64,000 bases of DNA from Octopus vulgaris (lineage: Eukaryota), in contig OX597816.1 of the NCBI GenBank assembly GCA_951406725.2, positions 159,960,001 to 160,024,000 of the forward strand, given 5' to 3'. The number at the start of each line of letters is the position of its first letter. Within the stretch, counting starts at the first letter, position 1. Below the pieces are notes generated by a model that worked only from the letters and a program-made list of their open reading frames with translations, had not been told where the DNA came from and searched no databases. Positions 4,111 to 63,585 of this stretch are shown one piece after another. The translations under genes and the position numbers were made by a program.

Positions 4111-5713
4111 TAAACTATATATATGGCTGTCATTCATATAGATTTCATACTATTCATGTTGCATGTTATTCAATGCTGTAAGACTTGAGATATGAAATGG
4201 AGGAGAAAGGCAAAGTCTGAACAGACAATTGTTTGTAATGGTGATAAATGGTCCAGGTATTTGCCAGTTGTACTGCTTGACTGCCTATTAGCTATCCACA
4301 TTGCAAGATGCAAGACAGCACAGTTAAAAGGAATCTGAAGGGAGGACTGTTGGATCTCTGTTTCGTGTGAATGGAACAGTACATATTTCATTTTCCTACC
4401 ATTCATCCTTCCTGGAACCACACCTGTTTCACACAGTCTCAGTATCATCTTTTACCTCACTGAATGCCTCCTTCACCTGTACACAATAACTCCCTTTTTC
4501 CTTTCCTTCTGTTCATCTCCCATTGTTTCCACTCCTATATACATCTGACTTCGTCCCCAGCACTTTGCATCTCTTACACACACAACCCCTACACACTTCA
4601 CATTATCTTTGCTGCCATCTATTATCTCTCTGATCCTCTCCTACTTCCTCCACTTACTCCTCCAACTGATATTCATGACTGACCATACTGCCATCCATGG
4701 CCACCACTCTCTACATTCCTCTTATTCAATCTTCTGTACCACTTATATTCACCTCCCTGTAATTTGAGGCTATACCTTGACACATATTCACCACTCACTT
4801 CTCCAACTGAGCCATTTATCTCTCCTATGCAAGACACCTGCTCTTATCCCTCTATCAGACTTGAACCACCTCCTTCAATACTACAGCCCTCAGTTGAGGA
4901 GTCTTGTCTTGCAAATTACTTAGGTACCTCACTAGTGCTGTTGCCACATAAAAAGCACCCAGTTCACTCTGTAAAGTGATCGGTTTTAGGAAAGGCATCC
5001 AGTCATAGAAACCATGCCAAAGCAGACTTTGGAACTTCATGCAACCCTCTGGTTCACCAGCTCTGGTTGAACTATCTAATCCATACAAGCATGGAGAACA
5101 GATGTTAATTGATGAGTATGTCTAACATGTCCATAGAGACAATAAGCCTTATTCAAAAGCACCTTTATATGCCTTCTTACAAAACTGTTAAAGGATTTCT
5201 GCAGTAATTTGTCAGCACAGATTCACTCCTTCATGGCAATTTTGTTGGTCTTGGTCCTTAGTTGTTTGTTAAACTGAATATTTCTTATCAAGGTGTCTCT
5301 CTGTGAATACCTCATACAGCTAATTTATCTGTGTCTATTGTATGACTGAGTAAAGACATTGTCAACTGTGTCACTCTGTCTCTTTAACCTTCACTTTGCA
5401 GGAACCAAAAAAAGTAGGTTCCAAGCTTGTGAACTGAGTTAACTCAGTTTAAATATGTTGTTACTTTCTGGAATTCTCCACATTTCATATGATACAGGAT
5501 GCACATTTTATTTCTACTGGCTAATTCAGTATCTACACATTAGTATGTAAATAATTAAACCAGTACAGTGAGGGTTAACTGAACATTTTAGAGTGATTTA
5601 TTATTCAAGCATGTCCAGCAAGCTGCTGTGTGATTTGATGTCACATTGTATTATCATGCACTAACTAGCTGCATGGTTTTCTACCTGGTAAGTAGGATAA
5701 TTGATTTACTAGC

Positions 5714-8700
5714 ATCATCATCATCGTTTAGCGTCCGCTTTCCATGCTGGCATGGGTTGGACGGTTCAACTGGGGTCTGGGAAGCCAGAAGGCTGCACCA
5801 GGCCCAGTTTGATCTGGCAATGTTTTTACGGCTGGATGCCCTTCCTAGCGCCAACCACTCCATGAGTATAGTGGGTGCTTTTTACGTGCCACCGGCACAG
5901 GTGCCAGGCGAGTCTGGCAAACGGCCACGATCAGATGGTGCTTTTTATGTGCCACCGGCATGGGGGCCAGGCGAGGCTGGCAACGACCACGAACGGATGG
6001 TGCCTTTTACGTGCCACCGGCACGAGGCCAGTTGGGGCGGCGCTGGCAATGGCCACGAATGGATAGTGCTTTTTACGTGCCACCGGCATGAGGTCAGTCG
6101 GGGCGGCGCTGGCAACGGTCACGTTCGGATGGTCCTCTTACATTCCACCGGCACTGGTAACTCAGCTGCAATTTCCATTGATCGATTTCGATTCTGATTC
6201 TAACTTGCCTCAACAGGTCTTCACAAGTAGAGTTTTGTGTCCCAAGAAGGGAAGGTATGCATAAGTGGGCTGGCTACATCCCATGTAGAGGGCCACAGGT
6301 TATGGTCTCACGTGTCCTGCCGGGTCTTCTCACGCACAGCATACTTCCAGCGGTCTTGGTCTCTAGTCATTTCCTCAGTGAGACCTAAAGTTCGAAGGTC
6401 GTGCTTCACCACCTCGTCCCAGGTTTTCCTGGGTCTGCCTCTTCCACAGGTTCCCTCAACCACTAGGATGTGGCACTTTTTCACACAACTATCTTCATCC
6501 ATTCTCGCCACATGTCTATACCAGCGCAAACGTCTCCCTTGCACACCACATCTGATGCTTCTTAGGTCCAGCTTTTCTCTCAAGGTACTTACACTCTGTT
6601 GAGTATGAATACTGACATTACACATCCATCGGAGCATACTGGCTTCATTTCTTGCGAGCTTACGCATATCCTCAGCAGTCATGGCCCATGTTTCACTGCC
6701 ATGTAGCATGGCTGTTCGTACACACGCGTCATACAGTCTGCCTTTTACTCTGAGCGAGAGGCCTTTTGTCACCAGCAGAGGTAAGAGCTCTCTGAACTTT
6801 GCCCAAGCTATTCTTACTCTAGCAGTTACACTTTCAGCACACCCGCCCCCGCTGTTGAATAAGGTTGCTGAATAAAGAAAATGAAGAATGGGATAAAGAG
6901 AGTCTGCCGAATGTTGACCCAACAGAGGGACCAGCTATCCGAGTTGACAGTTCCTTGGTAGTTAAGGCAATTAGAAGCATGAAGACAGGGAAAGCCCCAG
7001 GCCCATCAGGAATCACTGCAGAGATGCTCAAAATATCTGGTAACGGAAGCTATCAACTATTTCTAGTTTTTCTCCCTGGAAAGTGACAGAGGTTGGTCTC
7101 AGAGCACTTTCAATGTTTATTGTTCCTGAGCATCTGCCACATACAAAAACCATCTTCCTAGTTAGCCTTCCTTTGACATTGCTGCACCTCTTATGTGTCC
7201 ATAGCTTACACTTGGTGCATCTTATAGAGTTTCTACCTACACCTTTTTTACAGATCGAGCAGCGCCATCTACCTGAAGGAATTTGTGATTTGTCTACCTT
7301 CCTACTTATTAGTACTTTGGTTTTAGCTAGATTGACTCTAAGGCCCTTCGATTCTAATCCTTGCTTCCACACCTGAAACTTCTCCTCCAGTTCTGATAGT
7401 GACTCAGCAATTAGAGCAAGGTCATCAGCATAGAGGAGCTCTCAAGGGCATCCTGTCTTGAATTCCTCCGTTATTGCCTGGAGGACTATGATAAATAGGA
7501 GGGGGCTGAGGACTGAGCCTTGGTGGACCCCTACCTCTACCCGGAATTCTTCACTGTACTCGTTGCCAACCCTCACCTTACTAGCAGCGTCCCTGTACAT
7601 GGCTCGCACAGCTCTCACTAACCTTTCATCTATCCCTAGTTTCCTCATTGACCACCAGATAAGGGATCGGGGGACCCTGTCGAAGGCTTTCTCCATGTCA
7701 ACAAAAGCCAGGTACAGGGGCTTATCTTTGGCTAGGTATTTCTCCTGCAGCTGCCTTACCAGGAATATAGCATCAGTGGTACTTTTCCCTGGCACGAACC
7801 CAAACTGCATCTCATCTAAACTAACTCTCTCTAATTAGTTGGGCTATGACCCTCTCCATAACCTTCATCACCTGATCCAACAGCTTGATACCTCTGTAAT
7901 TATTTGTATCTAGGGTGTCACCTTTACCTTTGTAGCAGTTGACTATTATGCTGCTACACCAGTCATTGGGTATGACTCCTTCGTGTATCACCTGATTAAC
8001 TATACGGGTGACTAGGCTATAGCCGACACTACCAGATATTTTGAGCATCTCTGCAGTGATTCCTGATGGGCCTGGGGCTTTCCCTGTCTTCATGCTTCTA
8101 ATTGCCTTAACTACCAAGGAACTGTGAACTCGGATAGCTGGTCCCTCTGTTGGGTCAACATTCGGCAGACTCTCTTTATCCCATTCATTTTCTTTATTCA
8201 GCAACCTTTCATAGTGGCGTCTCCAAACCTCTCTCTTTGCATCCTCATTTAGCGCAAGTGAATCATCTTCCATGCAAACACACTTCTCTCCTACCACATC
8301 ACAATTCTCTCTCACACACTGTCTTGCAACGCGAAACACCTCCAGTCTTTGGTCCTCACGGCGCAGAACATTGGCAAATTTTTCTTATCTGCTTCCCCTC
8401 TGGCTCGATAGACCTGTCTCCTAGCTTCCCTTTTGGCAGTCTGATATAATTCCCTGCTACCACCATTCTTCCAGTCCTTCCAAGTCTGTCTCTTTTCTCT
8501 AATAGCCCTGTCTACAACACTGTTCCACCACCACGTTACCTTGGGACGAGAGGGGACTTTGCACCAGCCACAGATCTGGTCAGTGACTCTCAGCAGGTTG
8601 TCCCTTAGAAACGTCCAGTTGCCTTCTACCCCATGTGATACTCTCTCCCCTTCTACTTCATCAAAGGCTTCAAGTAGCATGTCCCTAAATCTCTGTCCAT

Positions 8701-10048: not shown

Positions 10049-10097
10049 TATAGCATAAAGGTTTCAGATCTTGTTAACACATGGTTGTAGATATTTA

Positions 10098-10409
10098 AGA
10101 AATAATAATATGTAAAACCGCACAGGAAGTTTGTGTAATAAAATGTATGCTAATATTAAGATCATAATGAAAGAGTTGTATTATAACATTAGATAATAAA
10201 CTGGTAGTACTGGTTTCACGTCTTATGCTAATCAAGCCTCCAAGGTCTTAGAATGACTGAAATCTAAGTCCTTGGATGTTTGATAAGCATAAGATGCGAA
10301 ACCGGTACTACCAGTTTATTATATAATGCAACTCTTTGTTTCATTATGATTTTAATATTAGCATAAATTTTATTATACAAACCTCCTGTACATTTTTATA
10401 TATTTTTCT
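10098..10409. repeat. About 310-bp imperfect palindrome carrying hammerhead-like motifs (Penelope-like terminal repeat relic)
   Basis: Arms reverse-complementary about a centre near 10255; hammerhead-like motif in each arm. Confidence 0.75.
10280..10307 (+). ncRNA. Minimal hammerhead ribozyme core, U3:A8 variant (candidate)
   Basis: TTGATAA-GCAT-AAG-ATGC-GAAA-CCGG-TA; stem I weak. Confidence 0.5.
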
Positions 10410-10410
10410 T

Positions 10411-11250
10411 TCAGAGGAGCTTCAGACCTTGGACATAGAAGTAGCTGGAAATTCCTACGGGACAGCTTACTGAGTGCCACAGACCAAGTCTTTGAATGGT
10501 GCAAAGTCCTTTCCAGACCTAGAGTAACATGGTGGTGGAATAATACGATAGACAAAGCCGTTAGATCAAAGAAACAGGCCTGAAAAGCCTGGAAGAGTGG
10601 CAGTACCAGGGAACTGTACCAGATAGCCAGAAGGGAGGCTGGGTGACAGGTATACATAGCCTAGGGAGAAGCAGAAAAGAAGAAGTTTGCAAATGTCCAG
10701 CGAAGTGAGGACAAAAGAACTGAAGTATTTCGGATTGCAAGACAGTGTGTGAGAGAAAATTGTGATGTCACAGGAGAGAAATGTGTCCGCATGGATGATG
10801 GTGCACTTGCTTTTAATGATTTGGAAAAGAAAGAGGCTTGGAGAAGCCATTGTGAAAGACTGCTGAACATGGAGAATGAAAGGGAGGAGGAGAGCCTGCC
10901 AAATGTTGACTCAGTAGAGGGACCAGCTATCCAAATAGACAGCACTCTGGTAGATAAAGCAATTAGGGTTATGAAACCAGGAAAAGCCCCTGGCCCATCA
11001 GGAATCACTGCTGAGATGCTTAAAACATCTGGTGGTGTGGGCTATGGCTTAGTCAACCATATTGTAAACCAGGTAGTTCATGATGGAGTCATACTCAATG
11101 ACTGGCATAGTAGCACCATAGTCAACTGCTACAAGGGTAAAGGTGATGCTTTAGATGGGGTATCAAACTGCTAGATCAGGTGATGAAAGTCATGGAGAGG
11201 GTCATAGCCCAACTAATTAGGGAGAGAATCTGCTTAGGTGAGATTCAGTT
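10411..11250 (+). mobile_element. Internal RTE LINE fragment, decayed
   Basis: ORF 10749-11174 (ESLPNVD, KAPGPSGITAEMLK, VNCYKGKGD) is paralogous to 7821-8339. Confidence 0.9.
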
Positions 11251-36100: not shown

Positions 36101-39100
36101 AGCCATGAAACCAGTTCCAAGAACATCACCAGCAGTTCTTTGTTGAAAAACAGAAAGAGAGAAATGTGTTACAAAATATTGCTTTTAGTAATAGAAACAT
36201 TCCAATAAAGCAAAAAGGTGCATGATTACTATCAAGATTTAACATCCACTTTTCCATGCTTGCATGGATCAGATGGGATTTGTAACATTCCTGTTACCAA
36301 CTCTCACTTGTTTCCAAGCAAGGTAATATTTCCCTGTGGTCAGACATATTCTCACAGAATATTGGAAATAAATTACAGTGACACTTGCTTACAACTATTC
36401 ACACAATGCCAAGACAAGGAGGCACAAACACAAACATAAACACACATAACAGGCTTGTCTAAGAAATCCACTCCCAAGGCTTAGGTTGACCTGGAGCAAT
36501 AATAGAAGACACTTGCCCAAGGTGCCAATCAGTGGCATTAAACCCAGAACTATGTGGTTCTGTGTGGTAAGAAGCAGACTTCTTACCACACAGCCACATC
36601 TGCTCCTGCATGCATATTTCTACTAGGTTTTTCATTCCACAGGTCACAGAAACTGTAGAGCAATCAGATATCCCCATTTTGTTCACACAAAGCCACAGGG
36701 TGCCAGCATTTGTGCACATTCATATGCACAATCATCAGCATTAAATGTCTGACTTCTATACTGACAGGATCCAACAAGGTAGAGGTCTGCATCAAACTCC
36801 AGTGTCTATTTGACATGGTTTCTCTGGCTAGATGCTCTTCCTAGTACCAACCATTTTATTGAGTAACTAGAGTACCTGTGACCCACTGAGTCACTGATTT
36901 GTTCATGCTATAAAACATTGAAGCTGATTTCAATATTACACTGAAATGAAAGTTAACTTCATGATGATTCAATTAAATATTTCAATTCGTTCATGTCATC
37001 ATAGGTCTGGTTTACAAGTTCATACTTTATTGATTATTTACTGCATCTAATACAAAATAGAACTTCAAGGATAAGCTTGAACTTCAGTAACAACATTTAT
37101 TTATGGCATATGTGCACACTTCTAAAATGTTAATGGAAACAATTTTCACAGTATTATATATTCCATTTCAGGTTGTGTTATTTTTGGAGTATTTTCCTAT
37201 TATGCGCCATTTTGGTTATTTTTGAAGGTACCTCCCAAAAAACATATTTTGGGAATCTGTGGTCCGACTAACATGAAACTTGTTTTATTTCATTTGTATT
37301 CACATTTCAGGAGTACCTTACTTTCAGAGCATTTTTCCATTATGTGCCGGTTTGGCTGTATTAAATTAGACAAGCGTGCAAGCAAGCAGCCACAGAGTTT
37401 TAGTAGTATTTAAACGAGCTTCACACAGTTTCTAATAAGCACATTCACTCACAGGCCTTATAATACCTTAGATGTAAAGATACTTAGTCTTGTTATATTG
37501 TATGTATATAAAACTGTATAGTTTTGCTATGTTATATGTTATGTTTTATATACAAGTAGGTGTGGCAATAGGCTCAGCCATGGCTGTGTAGTAAGAAGCT
37601 TGCTTCTCAACCGCACTGCTCCAGGTTCAGTCCCTGGCATCTTGTGCGAGTGTCTTCTATTATAGACCTGGGCGGACCAAAACCTTGTGGATGGATTTGG
37701 GAGACAGAAACTGAAAGAAGCCCATTATATATTTTTGTGAGTGTGTGACTGTCTCCTTGCTTCGACACTGCATGATAGTTGTAAATGAGTGTCACTGCAA
37801 TACAAGCGGTGTTGTTTATATTGAATATTCTGTGAAAATATGTCTGGTCATTGGGAAATATCTCACTTGAAAAACAGGTGAAGGTTGGCAACAGGGAGAG
37901 CATCCAGCTATAGAAAATCTACTTCAACAAATTTCATCTGACCCATGCAAAAGTGGATGTGATGGTGATGATGCTGACCATGTGTGAAATAATAATAAAT
38001 ACCAACTTACAAACACATAAACAGAAACTTACTCAATAGATTTCAGTATAGTTTCTCGATGCTCAGCTCCTTTCAGCTTGATCTCTTTCTGAATGAGATC
38101 CCAGTTTTCTCGATCTACTTTGGCCTTTTCTTGGATCTTGGCCCTCAACCTCATCATTTTGTGTTTGTGAAGGACATCAGCTTCATGCTCAACAGTGGCT
38201 GAAGAAAATAGTTATAAAATGAACAGGAATTTTGAAATTTAAAATGGAGGAGTAAGAAAAAATGTACATAAAAGAAAATATTGTGTGTACAGCTACAGGA
38301 ATAATGATAGTCGAGTGGGTTGTAGCTATGTACATATGTAAACATGTAGAAACCCCTTTATACATACAGGTATGATACACACATTTGTACTTTTTATGCA
38401 GCTGTTTTTTTTACACAAACACACATTCATTATTATTAAGGTGGCAAGCTGCCAGAATTGTTAGCATACCAGCTGCAATGTTCTGAGTTCAAATTCTGTC
38501 GAGGTCCACTTTGCCTTTCATCCTTTTGGGGTCGATTAAATAAGTACCAATTACACACTGGGGTTAATGTAACCAAACTTAATCCCTTCCCCCAAATTTG
38601 AGGCCTTGTGCTTCCAGTAGAAAGGATTATTATTATTGTTATTGTTATTATTATTATTATTATCAATAATAAAGCAGCAAGCTGGCATAATTGTTAGCAC
38701 ACTGGGTGAAATGCTTAGCAGCATTTTGTCCGTCCTTACATTCAAAGATCAAAGTCTGCCATTGTCAACTTTGCCTTTCCTATTTTTGGGGTCGATAAAA
38801 TAAGCACCAGTTGAGCACTAAGTTTGATGTAATCAACTTACCTCTCTCCCAAAATTGCTGGCCCTCTGCCAAAATTTGAAACCATTATCACCTCCACCTT
38901 AGTGAAGCTACGATATTGGTTTTACTTAACTCAACAGGTCTTCTCAAACATATCATATCACCCGACGCATCAGAGGTACTCTTAAACTGAACCAGACATG
39001 TGTGGCTGTGATCTCATTTTAGTTGCTGGCCCCTCTCAGTCACATCACATCTCCAAAGGTCTTGGTCTCCTGTCATTGCCTGAGCCTCACAGAGGCAATG

Positions 39101-42100
39101 ACAGGAGACCGAGACCCTTGGAGACAAGCTGTGATTGAGAAGACCCGGCAACTAATGCGAGATCGCAGCCACGCATGCCTGGCCCAGTCTAAGAGTACTC
39201 CTGATATGTGTATATATGTATATATATATATCTGCATGTGTGTGTGTGTGCAGTCATTTACTGAATTATAAATTAAATTTCATGTATTAAATTAGTATCT
39301 TTATGAGTTGGAAATCATTTACTTTTTATAACAAATAATTTGTGTTTTTAGGTTTAGTCTTGGTCAGTACCACCTGAAAAACCTACCCAAAGGCTACGTC
39401 TCACCAACACATGTATACAATATTAGTTACCTTTCTTAAGTGCTTCCTGTCTGGCTGTAGACTCTTCTTGTTTTTTCAGATTTTCTTCATTCATTCTTGC
39501 CTGAGAATAGATTAGAAAAGAATGTTCTAATACATACACACACACATATATATATCATCATCGTTTAATGTCTATTTTCCATGCATGCATGGGTAGGACA
39601 GTTGACAGGAGCTGGCCAGGTAGAAAAACTACCCTAGGCTAATGTGTCTGCTTTGGCAGGGATTTAATGGCTGGATGCCCTTCCTGACACCAACCACTCT
39701 GCAGTGTGTATGTGTTTGTCTTGACATTATATGATGGTTGTAAGCAAGTATCACCATCATACAAATGATGTTCCAGTCTCCTGTGGAAAACATGTCCGGC
39801 CATGGGGAAATATTACCTTGCTTGGAAGTAGGTGAGGGTTGGTGACAGGAAGGGCATCCAGCCATAAAGAATCTGCTGCAACGAATTCTGTTTGACCTAT
39901 GCAATGACAGAAAAGGTGGACATTAAATAATGGTAAAGATGATAACATTGTCATCGTCATTGTTTTAATATCAAATCTGAAAGGGTCAAAGCAAGGTCAA
40001 CTTTGGCTGATTTGAATTCAGAACTTAAAGATGGACAAAATGATGCTAAGCAATCTGCCCAGCATGCTAACGATGCTGCCAGTTCACCACCTTTTTATAT
40101 AATTAATGACTTGTAGGCATACAGTATTTCGTTATGCAACCACAATATATTATATCATTATCATCGTTTAACGTCTGTTTTCCATCCTGGCATGGGTTAG
40201 AGAGCCAGAAGGCTGCACCAGGCTCAATTTGATCTGGCAAAGTTTCTACAGCTGGATGCCCTTCCTAGCGCAAATCACTCTGAGAGTGTAGTGGGTGATT
40301 TTTATGTGCCACCAGCACGGGAGGCAGTCAGACAGGCCTGGCATTGAACACGTTTGGATAGTGCTTTTTACATGCCACTGGCACGGGGACCAGTCATGGG
40401 GTACTGGCATCAGCCATGATTGAATGGTACTTTTTACATGCAACCAGCATGGGAGCCAGTCAGGTGGCACTGGCAATGGCCGATTTAAATGCTAAAGTTA
40501 TTTTCATTACATTCATGAGTATTTTTTAAATTACTTGAAATAAAGAGGATGTATTTCAATGAAGTACAGAGTAACAAAAGGATTAAAGGAGATTAACAGT
40601 TTACCTGCTGAGCTAGCTGTTCATCATAACGTTTACGAGCTAACTGATCCTGGTATTGTGCTCTTTGCTGATACTGACGAGTTTCTTCAGCCATTGATTT
40701 TCTCTTTTCTTCTTGTATAACTCTCTGTTCTTCAATCTTCTGTTGGGCAACGTGAGCTTCATATTCCTGAGAAAAAAAAAATTATTGAAATAAGAAGAAA
40801 AAAAACAAACCATTCAACTATGTGACATGAACAATAACATTTTTCTCAATTGGGTGATTATTAGATTCTAGCTATTGTCAGAGCTGTTAAACCTCTGAAC
40901 AACTATGATCAAATGTTTTCCAACCATGGCCATCCAATCTCTTTCTAAATCAGAGACTACATTCTCTGATGTATTGTTTTTTATTATCATTTTTAAGTGA
41001 GCTGGGAGTAATGTGTGGGAAATTTGGCTGTTATTTCTGGCAAGCTAGATCACTTAGCAGCTTCCTTGACTCAAATTAATTGTAACAGGTGATAATGCAT
41101 TCCAAACAAGCAACTTCAAGGGCAAAAAAAAAAAAGTAGCAAAAAAATTACATTGTGGATTACATAAATATACATTATAGAGGATGGACAGGTGTCGTTA
41201 CCTTTGTTGTCAGGTGTTCTGGTGGAATTTTGAACCCAACCCTTTATTTGATTAATAGTACTCTGTTCTCATTCTTAAGGTAAGGTGTTCATTTTTGCTG
41301 ATGTTATTTTTTCTGTTGATATTATTTCACCAAGTCCTTGCCTGGGATTGAACTTAGAATCCAACAGTTAGTAGCCCATACAGGCATATATGCATAGTGA
41401 TAGTACCAGTTCTACATTCTTTACCAGTAACACTACCAACACATAGCCACCTGACTAAAATCCTTCGACAGATTTGTATTATTCTTTTGTGTCCCAGGTA
41501 GTACTCCAGAAATCCTTCTTCAATAGAATTTTTTTCCTTCATATTCTATTATTTCTATTTGTTGTGTCTTGTGGTCATTGTTGTATCCTGTGTGTTTCCG
41601 AATTCTTCCTTGTATCTCTCTTTACTCTTTTACTTGTTTCAGTCATTTGACTGCGGCCATACTGGAGCACCGCCTTTAGTACTTATTCTTTGTAAGCCCA
41701 GTACTCATTCTATCGGTCTCTTTTTTGCCGAACCGCTAAGTGACGGGGACGTAAACACACCAGCATCGGTTGTCAAGCAATGCTAGGGGAACAAACACAG
41801 ACACACAAACACACACATACATATATTTATATACTAGCAGTATCGCCCGGCGTTGTTCGGGTTTGTAAGGGAAATAACTATAAAGCATTTTTAGAGAGTT
41901 ATGGAAAAAAAATGGTAAATTTTTTTTTAGTTAAAAAGGTCGAGTTGCGTCCCTTAGACAGTCTGTGGTTTGTGTTTCTGATTCTCGACCCCATGTCGAA
42001 TTTATCGATTTTTTTCAGAACTGGGGGAACTTTTCAAAATTTTCGCTGCGTTAGTTTTGAATTATGACATTGGGCTATGTGTGTGTCAAGTTTCATCAGA

Positions 42101-45100
42101 ATCGGTTGAAAGCCGTGGTCAGGGTGAGGGTACAACCTAACAGACACACAGAAACACACACAGACAAACTGCTGTTTATATATAGAGAGATACATATATA
42201 CGACAGGCTTCTTTCAGTTTCCGTCTACCAAATCCACTCACAAGGCATTGGTTGGCCCGGGGCTATAGCAGAAGACACTTGCCCAAGATGCCACGCAGTG
42301 GGACTGAACCCGGAACCTTGTGGTTGGTTAGCAAGCTACTTACCACACAGCCACTCCTGCGCCTATCCCGCATGTTTTTGAATTCTTGTCACCGAATTTT
42401 TCCCTTTTGTATTCAGCAGTCATTGTTGTATCCTGTGTGTTTTCAACTTCTCATTGTTACATGTTATATCCTGCGTGTGTTCGAAACCTCTTTGCCACTG
42501 TTGTATCTTATGTTAGCAGTTTCGAACATTCCTTGTCACCACTGTTATGACTTCATTGCATGTTTTGCATGTTCTGATTTCAATTTCAGGGAAAGCACTA
42601 AGATGAATTCACGAAAATCAAGTGAAAAATGTCATGGCACAAGACACCTGAAGAAGGCTGGAGCATACAACAGTTGAAATGTAGTGGAAACAACAATCAA
42701 GATGAAGACAACAGTCTGACCAAATTAAATTCACTTCTTTAAATTTCCACCTCTGTTTCATTCTTTACTATAAGGATTTTACTTTTCAAAATATGTTTAC
42801 ATGGAATTCACCCCATGGCCAGACATATTTTCACAGAAGATTGGAAATAAGGGACACACCTTCTATGATGGTGACACTTATTTTCATTTGTCACACAATG
42901 TCAAAACAATGAGACACTAACACACACATACCTATATATATATAGTGAGACGTGGGCCCTGAATGTAGAGGGCATGCAAAGGTCAGAAAGGAATGAGGCT
43001 GGTATGCTCTGCTGGATGTGTAAGGTAAATGTACATGTTCGACAGAGTGCTAGTGTTCTGAGACAGAAGTTGGGCATAAGAGAGAAGACTGTGCTGGTTT
43101 GGTCATGTGATGCAGAAGGACACCAACAGCTCTATAAAGAAGTGTCAATCTCACACAGTAGACAGAACATGTGGAAGTGGGAGACCCAGAAAGACATGGG
43201 ATGAAGTACTGAAGGATGAACTCAGGATGCTGAACCTTTCAGGTGAGATGACAAAGGACCGAGATGTTTGGCGTCTTGCTGTACTCAAGAAGACCCATAC
43301 TCCACAGCAGAAGTGCTAAGACTGGTCCCTCTGGTAGCGAAAAGCACTTGTGGTGGTGTCACATAAAAGTACCTGTGTGGCACCACATAAAAGCACCCAG
43401 CTGTAAAAAACATGCCAAATCAGACAGGAGTCTGGTGCAGTTCCCTGACCCTGGTCAAACTGTCCAACCCATGCTAGCATAGACAACGGACATTAAACGA
43501 TGATAGCCAGCGCCGCCTCGACTGGCTTCTGTGTCGGTGGCACGTAAAAAGCACCATCTGAATCGGGGCCGAAGCTAGTGCCGCCTCGACTGGCTTCCGT
43601 GCAGGTGGCACGTAAAATGTACCAATCCGACCGTGGCCGATGCCAGCCTCGCCTGGCACCAGTGCAGGTGGCACGTAAAAAGCACCCACTACACTCACGG
43701 AGTGGTTGGCGTTAGGAAGGGCATCCAGCAGTAGAAACATTGCCAGATAAGACCGGAGCGTGGTGCAGCCTTCTGGCTTCCCAGATCCCCGGTTGAACCG
43801 TCCAACCCATGCTAGCATGTAGAACGGACGTTAAACGATGATGATGATGATGATGATATATAAACACACACACACATGAGTGAGTGGACAAATGAAAGAG
43901 GGGAGCGCTCAACACATTTAGAAGGAGTTACATGTATTATTTAATAGTTTGATTTGGTTCTGTGCTACTTCATGTTTTGCAGGCTCCTAATGGGAGCCCA
44001 ACTCCTTTAGGCTATGGAATACCAACCTGAAAGAGTTGGGCTCACGTTAAGAGCCTGTGAAACTTGAAGAACTATTTTAAATAATATATGGGGCTGAATC
44101 TGAGACCGCATATTTGGGAAACAAGCTTCTAACCGCACAACCAAGCCTGCACCCAGTATGTACTGTCCAGCTTCTCCAGCACACATCAAAATCATCATTT
44201 AACATATGACTCCTATATTGGCATGAGTTGGAAGTCAGCATCAAGCTCCAATGTCTGTTTTCGCATGGTTTTGATGACTGGATGCCCATTCTAATGCCAA
44301 CATCACAGAGCATGCTTGGTGATTAAAAAAAAATTTTTTTTGTGGTACCAGCACTGGTGAGGTCACCAAGAAACATGCAGAGCAAGACAAGTCTGTTCAA
44401 TGAAATGCGAGGGATTCCCTTTCTTGGTTGGCCTGATCTGTGTTTTGTTTGTAAATTAAAAGTAGACACAAAACAGTTGCTCTACATTTGGTTTATGAAA
44501 CTCAAAAGAGCCTCTAGTTGGTCACCGAAACTGTTAAAAATAGTAACCAAATTTCCCTCAAAACATACTTTACCATCTTTGAAAAATAAAAAAAGATGAC
44601 ACATTGGGTAATGTAGTCCTAGATATACAAACAGATGTGATAGTCATAGTTGAAATGCCTTTTAAACTTAAGTATGCTGGCTCAGCACTGACCTAGGGCT
44701 AGACAACATCAGAACGCATTCAATCTTCTCTAATAATAACATTAACTAAAAACATACAGCTGTACCATACATTCACCTTTGCTACACAAATAAAGCAATT
44801 TTCAGCTTTAGCACAGGAGTGAAGTAACATAACTATTGGGTTGTCTGGAAAGTTTGTGCCGATTTTTAAAGGAAAGAAAAAGGTCACTAAATATTTGCCA
44901 TTACATTTTTAATCAACCAAATATGAACCATTTTGTTGCACAATGCGTTTCCATCTTTCCTTTAACTTAAAAATACCCTCTTCCCAGAATTGTGGTGGTT
45001 TCATGGCAAACAATTCATCAAGGTATCTTTTTACGTCATCCAAGGAATTGAAATTTTTACCATTAAGACTATTCTTCAGAGACCTAAATAAGTAGAAATC

Positions 45101-52487: not shown

Positions 52488-52902
52488 GGTGGCGAGCTGG
52501 CAGAAACGTTAGCACGCCGGGCGAAATGCTTAGCGGTATTTCGTCTGCCGCTACGTTCTGAGTTCAAATTCCGCTGAGGTCAACTTTGCCTTTCATCCTT
52601 TTGGGGTCGATTAAATAAGTACCAGTTATGCACTGGGGTTGATATAATCGACTTAATCCCTTTGTCTGTCCTTGTTTGTCCACTCTATGTTTAGCCCCTT
52701 GTGGGTAGTAAAGAAATAGGTATTTCGTCTGCCGTTACGTTCTGAGTTCAAATTCCGCCGAGGTTGATTTTGCCTTTCGTCCTTTCGGGGCCGATTAAAT
52801 AAGTACCAGTTATGCACTGGGGTCGATATAATCGACTTAATCCGTTTGTCTGTCCTTGTTTGTCCACTCTATGTTTAGCCCCTTGTGGGTAGTAAAGAAA
52901 TA
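52488..52902 (+). mobile_element. Family A SINE with duplicated 3' half, upstream of ATAD3
   Basis: Same head+body+body structure as 16289-16700; GATATAGAGTTTTTAATGCAT repeated on both flanks (about 52465-52485 and 52903-52923) as a probable TSD. Confidence 0.88.
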
Positions 52903-55929: not shown

Positions 55930-56097
55930 TCTCCCACCCTTCCCTAGTCTTCTCTCTTTCCTCTTCACCGTTCCCTCTCACTCCTCCTCCTCGACTCTCT
56001 TGTCGCTTAGACATGTCGGAAGAGAATCTATCTTTCTGCTCACTATCTTCCTAAAGACAACACGTGCTTGGAATTTCTTTGAGTAATGTATATATAT

Positions 56098-56418
56098 ACA
56101 TTACTCAAAGAAATTCCAACTTTGATTTTTACATTTTATTTACAATCTTATAATGATATAAGAAAATATAATATATTGAAATAATAGAATAATGAATGTC
56201 TATTCAGATTTTGTAATTTACAACTGTTGTAAATTATAAAACATAATTGCCACCATTACTACATGAACCTGAAGATTGCATAGTTTAATGCATGAAAGTA
56301 CTAGTTCAATCAGAATGGATATTTAATATTCTATCATTTCATTATATCATATTATCTTATATTATTATAAGATTGTAAATAAAATGTGAAAATCAAAGTT
56401 CGAATTTCTTTGAGTAAT
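56098..56418. repeat. Fold-back element with a central hammerhead-like motif
   Basis: ATTACTCAAAGAAATTCCAACTTTGATTTTTACATTTTATTTACAATCTTATAAT mirrored at 56365-56418; motif at 56264-56308. Confidence 0.8.
56264..56308 (+). ncRNA. Minimal type I hammerhead ribozyme motif (10.1-11.1 mismatch)
   Basis: TGAAC-CTGAAGA-T-TGCAT-loop-ATGCA-T-GAAA-GTAC-TA-GTTCA. Confidence 0.6.
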
Positions 56419-56450
56419 ATATTCTTTTATACACAATCATACACACCAGC

Positions 56451-56524
<74 letters not shown>

Positions 56525-56529
<5 letters not shown>

Positions 56530-56845
56530 CAGTGTACATTTCAACACATCAGAAATGACCATAACAGGACATCTGACTCACTAGAAAGTGTAGTTAAACT
56601 AAAAACCACTAATTGTTGTAATTCTGAAAGGGAATGAAAAATAAAAACATTTACCCTATTTTCCTGGACTATGCATAGTTTCAAGCAATCTTTTGCAATA
56701 AAATAAAATAATAGGGTAAATGTTTTTATTTTTTATTCCCTTTCAGGATTACAACTATTAGTGGTTTGTAGTTTAACTACTCTTTCTAGCGAGTCAGATT
56801 TCCTGTTATGGCCATCTCTTATGTGTTTAAATGTACACTGTATTT
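56525..56845. repeat. Fold-back element; loop holds the 3' half of a hammerhead (minus strand)
   Basis: About 135-bp arms AAATACAGTGTACATTT... / ...AAATGTACACTGTATTT; minus-strand loop GCAA-AAGA-TTGC-TT-GAAA-CTATGCATAG-TC-CAGG. Confidence 0.8.
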
Positions 56846-56944
56846 TTATATGAATAATATATAGTCTATTGACTAATTTTTCTTCTAGCTAGATCACTGG
56901 TACCAAAGAATTTTTCTAAAATGTTTTTTCTACCCTAAGATTTA

Positions 56945-57000
<56 letters not shown>

Positions 57001-57130
57001 GCGTGTGTGTGTGTATATATATGCATGTATGTGTGTATATATATATATATATGTTTGTATGTATATGTGCGTGCATACATATATATATGTAGAAAAATAT
57101 ATACACGTGTGTATGTGTGTGTGTCTCTCT

Positions 57131-57220
<90 letters not shown>

Positions 57221-57615
57221 ATATATATATTGTTTGTAGAAAAACATAAATTTGGAGAAGCACACTCAAAGATGTAGAGCAGGTAATATTATAATATATA
57301 TTGGTAAAAACAGTAAGATAACAAAAGAAAGAAAGAGACCTCAATATTATGTAAATAGAGGAATTTATCTGTAAATATAATATGTGACAATATGTAAAAT
57401 GTAATATGTGAGGGTGGATGAATGTATGCGTACGCATGTGGGTGTTCGGACGCACATGTGTAGGTATGAACAGGCACGCTTACGCGTATACTATGAACTT
57501 TTTACCCCCTTTCCTTAATTAGCGGTCATTTAAATAGCGCTTTTGCCTAAATAGCGGTCAATAACACAATAATTTCCCTTTGTATAACGGTCATTTTTCA
57601 TAGTGTTTTTCCGAT

Positions 57616-57687
57616 GGCCGGATGACTGAAGAGATGGTGGAGTGGATTTCCACCTCGGCATCCGAAACTCAGAGTTTTATCTTGGCT
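57616..57687 (+). ncRNA. Type I hammerhead ribozyme candidate
   Basis: Stem I GGCC-GGATGA / TTATCT-T-GGCT; core CTGAAGA 57626-57632; stem II GATG-GTGGAG...TTCCAC-CATC; GAAA 57664-57667; stem III ACTC-A-GAGT; GUU site. Confidence 0.7.
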
Positions 57688-57737
57688 ACCGAATAATTGT
57701 CGCATACTACATTTACAGATATACATACATACATACA

Positions 57738-57809
<72 letters not shown>

Positions 57810-57883
57810 TATATATATATACACACACATACACATACATACGTACATACATATATATATATGTGTGTGTATATGTGTATATA

Positions 57884-57946
<63 letters not shown>

Positions 57947-63054: not shown

Positions 63055-63585
63055 GTATGGCTCAGCACTAGCACAGAAAGGCTCGGCACTGCATGGTTCA
63101 CCACTACATTACTCAACAATACATGGATAGGCACTGCACGGATCAGCACTGAATAGCTCAACACTGCATTGCTCAACACCGCATGGATCAGCAGAGCAAG
63201 GCTCAACACTGCGTGAATCAGCACTGCGTGGATCAGCACTGCATGGATCAGCACTGCATAGCTCAACACTGCATGGATCAACACAGCATGGGTCAGCATT
63301 ACATAGTTCAACACAGCAAGGCTCAAGACGGCATGGTTGAACACTGCATAGCTCAACACTGCATTGCTCAGCACTGCAAGGATCATCATTGCTTGGTTCA
63401 TCAAAGCAAGGCTCAGCACTGCATGGATCAGCACTGCATGGATCAGCACTGCATGGATCAGCACTGCATGAATCAGCACTGAAAGTTTCAGCACTGTATG
63501 GATTAGCGCTGCATGGATCAGGTTTGCAAGGCTCACCACTGCATGGATCAGCACTGTATGGATCAGCATTGCATGGATCAGCACT
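63055..63585. repeat. 15-bp minisatellite (consensus CAGCACTGCATGGAT), about 35 units
   Basis: Directly visible; explains the repetitive ORFs (QHCMD, HGSAL, LIHAV)n. Confidence 0.92.

Follow-up and report, generated by a model that had tools for sequence, protein, structure and literature searches.

The window, which is the whole stretch of 64,000 nucleotides of Octopus vulgaris DNA that was analysed (assembly GCA_951406725.2, contig OX597816.1, positions 159,960,001 to 160,024,000), contains three inverted-repeat elements within 1.7 kb. Elements 1, 2 and 3 belong to families here called F1, F2 and F3, and the tracts between them consist of (TA)n, (TG)n, (TC)n and (TACA)n. An earlier note made from the letters of this DNA had described the elements with their arms, three stem III words and the (TA)n and (TACA)n tracts, and all of these were recovered at their places. 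The positions given for the elements were correct, but the limits of two were too narrow, as element 1 reaches 56447 and element 2 reaches 56951 when their tails are counted. Likewise, the inverted repeat of element 3 is present but spans only 26 nt within the window copy, the left arm being mostly F3 tail, and among the stem III words, presented as self-complementary, ACTCAGAGT is so save for its central base. The elements share no significant similarity, the best BLASTN pieces being shorter than 20 nt. The features are as follows (PLE, Penelope-like element; pLTR, pseudo-LTR).

56068 to 56087, plus strand: 20-nt stub of an F1 3' end, followed by a 12-nt TA-type spacer; word identical to 56399–56418 (family D10)
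56100 to 56210, minus strand: element 1, tail-less inverted F1 3' end (scored as such in L001), with 89% identity to the sense arm
56216 to 56418, plus strand: element 1, sense 5'-truncated F1 pLTR; 78% identical to the pLTR behind the 775-aa frame of L169
56265 to 56307, plus strand: minimal type I hammerhead of F1 (predicted)
56419 to 56447, plus strand: F1 tail of ~30 nt, on this arm only
56452 to 56529, no strand: (TA)n target tract separating element 1 from element 2
56525 to 56712, minus strand: element 2, sense F2 copy (unit positions 307–497) without tail, 5'-truncated inside stem II
56662 to 56682, minus strand: 3' half of the F2 hammerhead, with GAAA, 12-nt palindromic stem III (56668–56679), GUC site and 3' strand of stem I
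56707 to 56951, plus strand: element 2, inverted F2 end including a tail of ~105–120 nt (56830–56951)
56950 to 57230, no strand: spacer of (TA)n, (TG)n and (TC)n separating element 2 from element 3
57293 to 57391, minus strand: element 3, inverted F3 3' end including a tail of ~65 nt; in L067 the end with its tail is 94% identical; word test (L059)
57408 to 57721, plus strand: element 3, sense 5'-truncated F3 3' end without tail; Hydra motifs in relatives
57617 to 57686, plus strand: type I hammerhead of F3 (predicted)
57719 to 57946, no strand: (TACA)n/(TA)n tract at the right end

In each element a 5'-truncated copy is joined to a second, inverted version of its end; the 3' ends face outward, both outer ends lie in (TA)n, and each window copy folds as a long hairpin. 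A first look at the genome (2.8 Gb in 227 contigs) gave 1582 candidates for F1, 2456 for F2 and 2604 for F3, figures that are not copy numbers, and 40 candidates were scored per family. The copies of each family share their 3' end and are cut at differing 5' positions. Judged by sequence, elements 1 to 3 are 3' ends, each from a different abundant repeat family, and the three families are unrelated. The 20-nt F1 stub to the left of element 1 is joined to a fragment of another abundant repeat (55930–56067; 582 candidates) that starts at a (TA)n tract; tblastn gave no PLE match in 12 loci of this family, that of 55975.

Complete type I hammerheads are predicted on the plus strand at 56269 and 57626, and element 2 carries only half of one, on the minus strand, as had been proposed. 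A strict descriptor gave one match in the 64-kb window (56269) against a mean of 0.03 and a maximum of 1 in 100 dinucleotide shuffles. A looser descriptor, run without shuffle control, gave two matches, adding 57626. Of the 112 matches that Rfam gave for the window at E<=10, none was to a hammerhead family, all being microsatellite-driven miRNA matches, and tblastn of two PLE proteins against the window returned nothing.

The F1 hammerhead has a stem I of 4–5 bp, CUGAAGA at 56269–56275, a stem II with a U-U at its base, GAAA and the palindromic stem III AGUACU at 56297–56302, with a predicted cut after 56303; its folding equals that of shuffled sequences (z 0.08). A same-strand PLE remnant upstream was detected in 4/30 F1 loci (tblastn with the two PLE proteins). 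In L169 two tandem 775-aa frames lie 4270 bp apart and each is followed by the F1 hammerhead region. The 775-aa protein matches GIY-YIG above the Pfam cut-off (E 3e-5, 24.8 bits against 22.6) and RVT_1 just under it (E 2e-6, 27.9 bits against 29.6), and carries the motifs GLKF, DKG, CX4CxxC and CCHH. F1 thus ends a single RT frame with C-terminal GIY-YIG, as in EN+ PLEs, in sense with the hammerhead end; the GxKF/Y, DKG, CX2-5CxxC linker and CCHH motifs are those of the Neptune/Nematis type (PMC8557442, PMC3846280). With these, in the parts of the two papers that describe them, F1 also shares partial tandems, an inverted 5'-truncated arm, a ~30-nt tail at one end (single in 9/9 two-armed F1 loci), a hammerhead in the pLTR and (TA)n targets. 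It differs in the CCGAAGA core of its youngest copies, and the motifs leave Neptune and Nematis undivided. Element 1 is classed as the pLTR of an autonomous PLE with Neptune-type motifs in its relatives, the clade being assigned by motif. Two decayed F1 fragments had no match in Pfam, and an RVT_1 match at L018:157-603 was set aside, as it lies mostly in another, non-PLE RT fragment adjoining an F1 remnant. The Neptune-type unit of L169 also has a 266-aa frame (5200–5997) for which Pfam gave nothing; this frame overlaps the beginning of the 775-aa one, to which it may add an upstream portion through frameshifting or splicing.

The F3 hammerhead contains CUGAAGA at 57626–57632, a long stem II, one extra base before GAAA (57664–57667) and the stem III ACUC-A-GAGU at 57667–57675, with a predicted cut after 57676. 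The hammerhead region of the window copy is 83% identical to that of L144. Same-strand PLE remnants were found upstream in 10/30 F3 loci (tblastn). In L144 the order is (TA)n, inverted pLTR, direct pLTR with tail, a 717-aa frame, pLTR and (TA)n, and L145 is a tandem of 2.59-kb units that are 99.9% identical. The 717-aa protein has RWK, DKT, CxCX5C, CxxC and CxH and is devoid of GxKF and CCHH, which corresponds to the definition of the Hydra clade in PMC8557442; the unit below 3 kb, the hammerhead and the insertion into (TA)n agree with this clade too. F3 is set apart by its ~65-nt tail, the extra base between stem II and GAAA and CCGAAGA in its youngest subfamily. Against Pfam, the whole 717-aa protein gave no family, and a fragment of it gave GIY-YIG at E 0.011, below the cut-off. 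An assignment to 'Nematis' was given up for Hydra after the motif test. Element 3 is classed as the pLTR of an autonomous PLE of Hydra type, the clade again being assigned by motif.

Longer copies of both F1 and F3 run upstream into decayed coding sequence, so that the link of these ends to RT and GIY-YIG frames is directly observed. Searched with the F1 and F3 coding fragments, the genome yielded numerous copies that retain long open frames. The two PLEs each gave more than 100 such places, which score almost alike and are often arranged in tandem or as inverted pairs. Both PLE families look recently active. Retrozymes are devoid of a protein-coding body, whereas F1 and F3 are ends of RT-EN elements.

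Family F2 is of a different make. Its set comprised 88 loci from three queries, or 80 after removal of eight duplicates; these 80 are all top-scoring among thousands of places and were taken with 1.5 kb of flank. F2 copies tile a head-to-tail unit, the sequence after the end being the sequence before the hammerhead, and in the longest copies the tail of the previous unit precedes the hammerhead. Spacings between cut sites were 478, 464, 486, 468 and 477 nt in five of the eight loci picked for this test. The unit has a GC content of 36% and a longest ATG frame of 77 aa, and subfamilies that are ~78% identical keep one unit of ~480 nt. The tandem arrangement of retrozymes was seen in L102 and on the minus strand of L201, and among the 80 loci no array went beyond a dimer plus partial units. 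In the window, the arms of element 2 are 147 nt long and 90% complementary, the inverted arm corresponding to unit positions 356–497 plus tail. CUGANGA is absent from element 2: the core lies at unit position 281 and the copy starts at 307. Because the copy begins 3' of the core, element 2 cannot form a complete hammerhead. A reading of element 2 as a Tc1-type MITE, prompted by a CAGT end, was dropped since the arms map onto the tandem unit.

A pattern search gave 69 complete F2 hammerhead segments, 53 of which were aligned after second arms and misplaced segments had been left out; as the pattern demands the core, core conservation is partly by construction. In the alignment 92.2% of the cells of the hammerhead structure were paired (32–43% in slid controls), and 9 of 23 pairs had changed on both sides, compared with 3.6 in shuffles. 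One stem I pair is C-G in 26 sequences and U-A in 25, a compensation that represents one inherited event between subfamilies. The monomer from cut to cut has a branched fold (-118 kcal/mol, z -2.8, 63% paired). Among public runs, no RNA run was listed for the F2 dimer; F2 fragments were present in contigs of four runs (three guessed to be RNA, one of unknown kind), contigs that show no ends, strand or circles.

With head-to-tail units of 464–486 nt, low GC and no ORF, F2 has the DNA anatomy of the animal non-LTR retrozymes (PMC7229834; bioRxiv 10.64898/2026.07.22.740005), in which an ORF-less, low-GC unit likewise bears one type I hammerhead and dimers carry two complete ribozymes. Its unit lies slightly above the 150–450 bp of the former source and within the 51–972 bp of the latter. 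It differs from retrozymes in consisting mostly of dispersed truncated copies, with no long arrays among the 80 loci, and in showing the tail and inverted arm of PLEs, which the parts of the two papers covered here do not report for retrozymes. By its DNA, F2 is classed as a non-LTR-retrozyme-type element. It likely borrows PLE enzymes; non-LTR retrozymes have been proposed to be non-autonomous PLE derivatives (bioRxiv 10.64898/2026.07.22.740005).

F2 might instead be the pLTR of a rare autonomous PLE that was missed in the sample, or a passive deletion derivative that never makes circles. This would agree with arrays that are at most dimers plus partial units, with a sample restricted to top matches and with a tail that follows the pLTR rule described below. 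However, no same-strand PLE remnant was found upstream by tblastn in any of the 80 F2 loci with their 1.5-kb flanks (opposite-strand remnants occurred in three), whereas F1 and F3 together had a same-strand frame in 14/60. The preceding unit's tail in the longest copies and the single unit length kept by diverged subfamilies speak against it as well, and this alternative is considered unlikely, although it retains some weight.

To the palindromes the earlier note had given a central role: the elements were thought to form one diverse class of small non-coding ribozyme retro-elements that would fold into rod-like RNAs and possibly be processed to circles, as retrozymes are. What stood was that the sequences are abundant, hammerhead-bearing retroelement sequences favouring simple repeats, and that F2 has retrozyme anatomy; the folding of each window copy as a long hairpin also fits. 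They are not one class, however, since two of the three are truncated ends of protein-coding PLEs, so that the proposal is refuted for F1 and F3, which run into RT-EN frames. Nor is the rod a property of the families. Two-armed loci, scored as outward-facing end pairs with diagnostic words, made up only 9/30 for F1, 29/80 for F2 and 9/30 for F3, most copies being single-armed, and the junction varies by copy; moreover, the F2 monomer is branched and not a rod. A new class with a circularising rod RNA therefore seems most improbable.

The tail was present on exactly one arm in 47/47 two-armed loci, whereas its frequency over all ends was 44–51%. Sixteen of the F2 pairs came from a tail-bearing query, and without them 31/31 pairs were one-tailed, the three window copies included. 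From this one tail per two-armed insertion it follows that the palindromes likely formed at insertion and do not reflect a family RNA of rod shape. For PLEs, inverted pLTRs of which a single one bears the tail have been described (PMC3846280, PMC8557442). If the arms had instead arisen after insertion, by fold-back repair or by deletion between opposed neighbours in a TA tract, independent neighbours would have had tails at random, and yet all 31 unbiased pairs were discordant; a fold-back copy would have given identical ends on both arms. Microsatellites do collect many independent insertions, and of the 80 F2 5' junctions 24 adjoin unclassified DNA, as this explanation would allow (the others being 40 inverted F2 arms, 14 microsatellites, one inverted F3-type arm in L038 and one mis-called), but it has very little probability left. 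Ordinary MITEs, that is TIR DNA transposons inserting at TA with chance hammerhead words, would have long inverted arms between TA flanks as seen here, but the fixed length and equal terminal inverted repeats of MITEs are replaced by variable truncation, unequal ends with a tail on one arm only and a single-armed majority, and with RT frames upstream and compensatory changes in the hammerhead this reading can be dismissed.

Some F2 copies are chimeric. In L038 (1100–1684), an insertion flanked by (TA)n and (GT)n, the tail-bearing inverted end of a Hydra-type PLE directly abuts a tail-less sense F2 copy, and the one-tail rule is thus kept across two families. In L194 F2 is joined to an inverted PLE RT fragment, and in L051 to the inverted end of another hammerhead family via a short duplicated linker. 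The partners are three different ones, hence these junctions are a lead and assign no driver to F2.

The three elements are thus very probably three insertions in one simple-repeat field, two of them truncated PLE ends and one a truncated, protein-free hammerhead repeat of 480 bases, all likely inserted by Penelope-type enzymes. At an AT-rich target, such enzymes would cleave the two strands and use each cut end to copy the element RNA. For another PLE, in vitro work in PMC11167929 shows that the protein cleaves and extends the two strands of AT-rich DNA and that reverse transcription starts at two nearby sites, the interval between them being the tail. Each arm would then represent one primed cDNA, one per start site, and two cDNAs joined at their truncated 5' ends would give the palindrome at the moment of insertion. 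The outer ends mostly adjoin microsatellites, which accounts for clustering without a common origin; each element would prefer (TA)n and leave (TA)n on both sides. The window copies themselves are likely dead stumps.

Elements 1 and 3 and the F2 family have the CUGANGA, GAAA, UH and three helices of type I hammerheads. They resemble the minimal PLE hammerheads (PMC4209133) in a short stem I, a long stem II and a palindromic 15-16 region suited to dimers. F2 departs from these in that its stem III is a 12-nt palindrome that could also form within a monomer, as 4 bp capped by a tetraloop, and its stem II measures 45–65 nt. For PLE hammerheads the same source, in the part used here, reports palindromic stem III, dimer cleavage and low in vitro activity, as well as solo hammerheads and opposite-strand pairs 100–700 bp apart in truncated PLEs. 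In the dimer model given there, two ribozymes of a tandem transcript would pair through the palindromic stem III and cut it into units; F2 dimers could in this way release a monomer of 464–486 nt able to circularise. Tandem type I hammerhead units giving circles are the non-LTR retrozymes of PMC7229834. The PLE hammerhead was reported to cut only with protein and to be dispensable for insertion in vitro (PMC11167929), and 8/9 retrozyme dimers tested did not cleave (bioRxiv 10.64898/2026.07.22.740005).

The core differs between old and young copies. CTGAAGA was found in 29 old copies of F1 and 30 of F3, CCGAAGA in 0 and 1, respectively. In the loci from the protein search, a few places being counted twice, CCGAAGA versus CTGAAGA numbered 21 versus 6 for F1 and 24 versus 1 for F3. 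The youngest subfamilies of both PLE clades hence carry CCGAAGA, i.e. U4C (L169, L144, L145, loci L120–L173), and CCGA cores occur in two further families too. The near-uniform CTGA of old copies told against CpG decay of CCGA as the origin of their cores, and this idea was given up. In vitro, U4C reduces activity, yet it is viable in a viroid (PMC3088659).

Elsewhere in the window, the motifs at 10280 and 42645 that had also been pointed out proved to be real members of two further repeat families. The first lies in a two-armed insertion of a fourth family (10054–10412) with a likely hammerhead that has TTGATAA (U3-A8 core), stem III ACCGGT and a poor stem I; its stem II reads GCAT/ATGC versus GCGT/ACGC in relatives, and PLE tblastn matches were present in 4/15 loci, scored as presence in the locus only. 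The U3-A8 core is among the variants reported in PMC4209133, in the part consulted. The second (42638–42730) belongs to a fifth hammerhead-like family, for which there were 666 candidates; this copy is old and decayed, with neither inverted arm nor (TA)n at the site and without a PLE frame in 12 loci (tblastn). A 15-bp tandem repeat of ~33 copies with a coding-like period occupies 63086–63585, and a GC-rich hairpin of ~80–100 nt at 39037–39134 gave weak miRNA-model matches below the gathering score. At 52535 lies what we take to be a SINE.

The earlier note knew of no description of these families, and this holds insofar as the literature found on hammerheads with Penelope-like elements and octopus or cephalopods contains no description of F1–F3, which Repbase, Dfam, the published octopus library or the supplements of PMC8557442 may nevertheless hold. 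Published work already covers the class itself as well as its palindromic stem III, inverted arm, tail and preference for (TA)n (PMC4209133, PMC8557442, PMC3846280, PMC11167929). The annotation of PLEs in Octopus vulgaris counts 31 families with recent activity (PMC13282606). F1–F3 are an ordinary case of a known class, and in such a genome hammerhead-bearing PLE stumps are to be expected in TA repeats.

A bolder reading, which is possible but less likely than not, is that F2 represents a true animal retrozyme whose insertion depends on PLE two-strand priming, with a Hydra PLE as its driver and arms derived from two RNAs as in chimeras like L038, and that U4C was gained independently in two PLE clades. 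If so, the one-tail fingerprint of F2 (29/29 two-armed loci) would be direct genomic evidence for retrozyme insertion by PLE two-strand priming, and L038-like chimeras would show that the arms were copied from two separate RNA molecules and would name a Hydra PLE as the driver. U4C in the youngest subfamilies would then look like a preference of active elements for a weaker ribozyme. In this genome near-identical tandem PLEs with open frames (99.9% between units) stand beside an ORF-less hammerhead unit that obeys their insertion rule. This is a useful system, in which the movement of retrozymes by PLE proteins and the origin of the inverted arm and the one-sided tail become testable.
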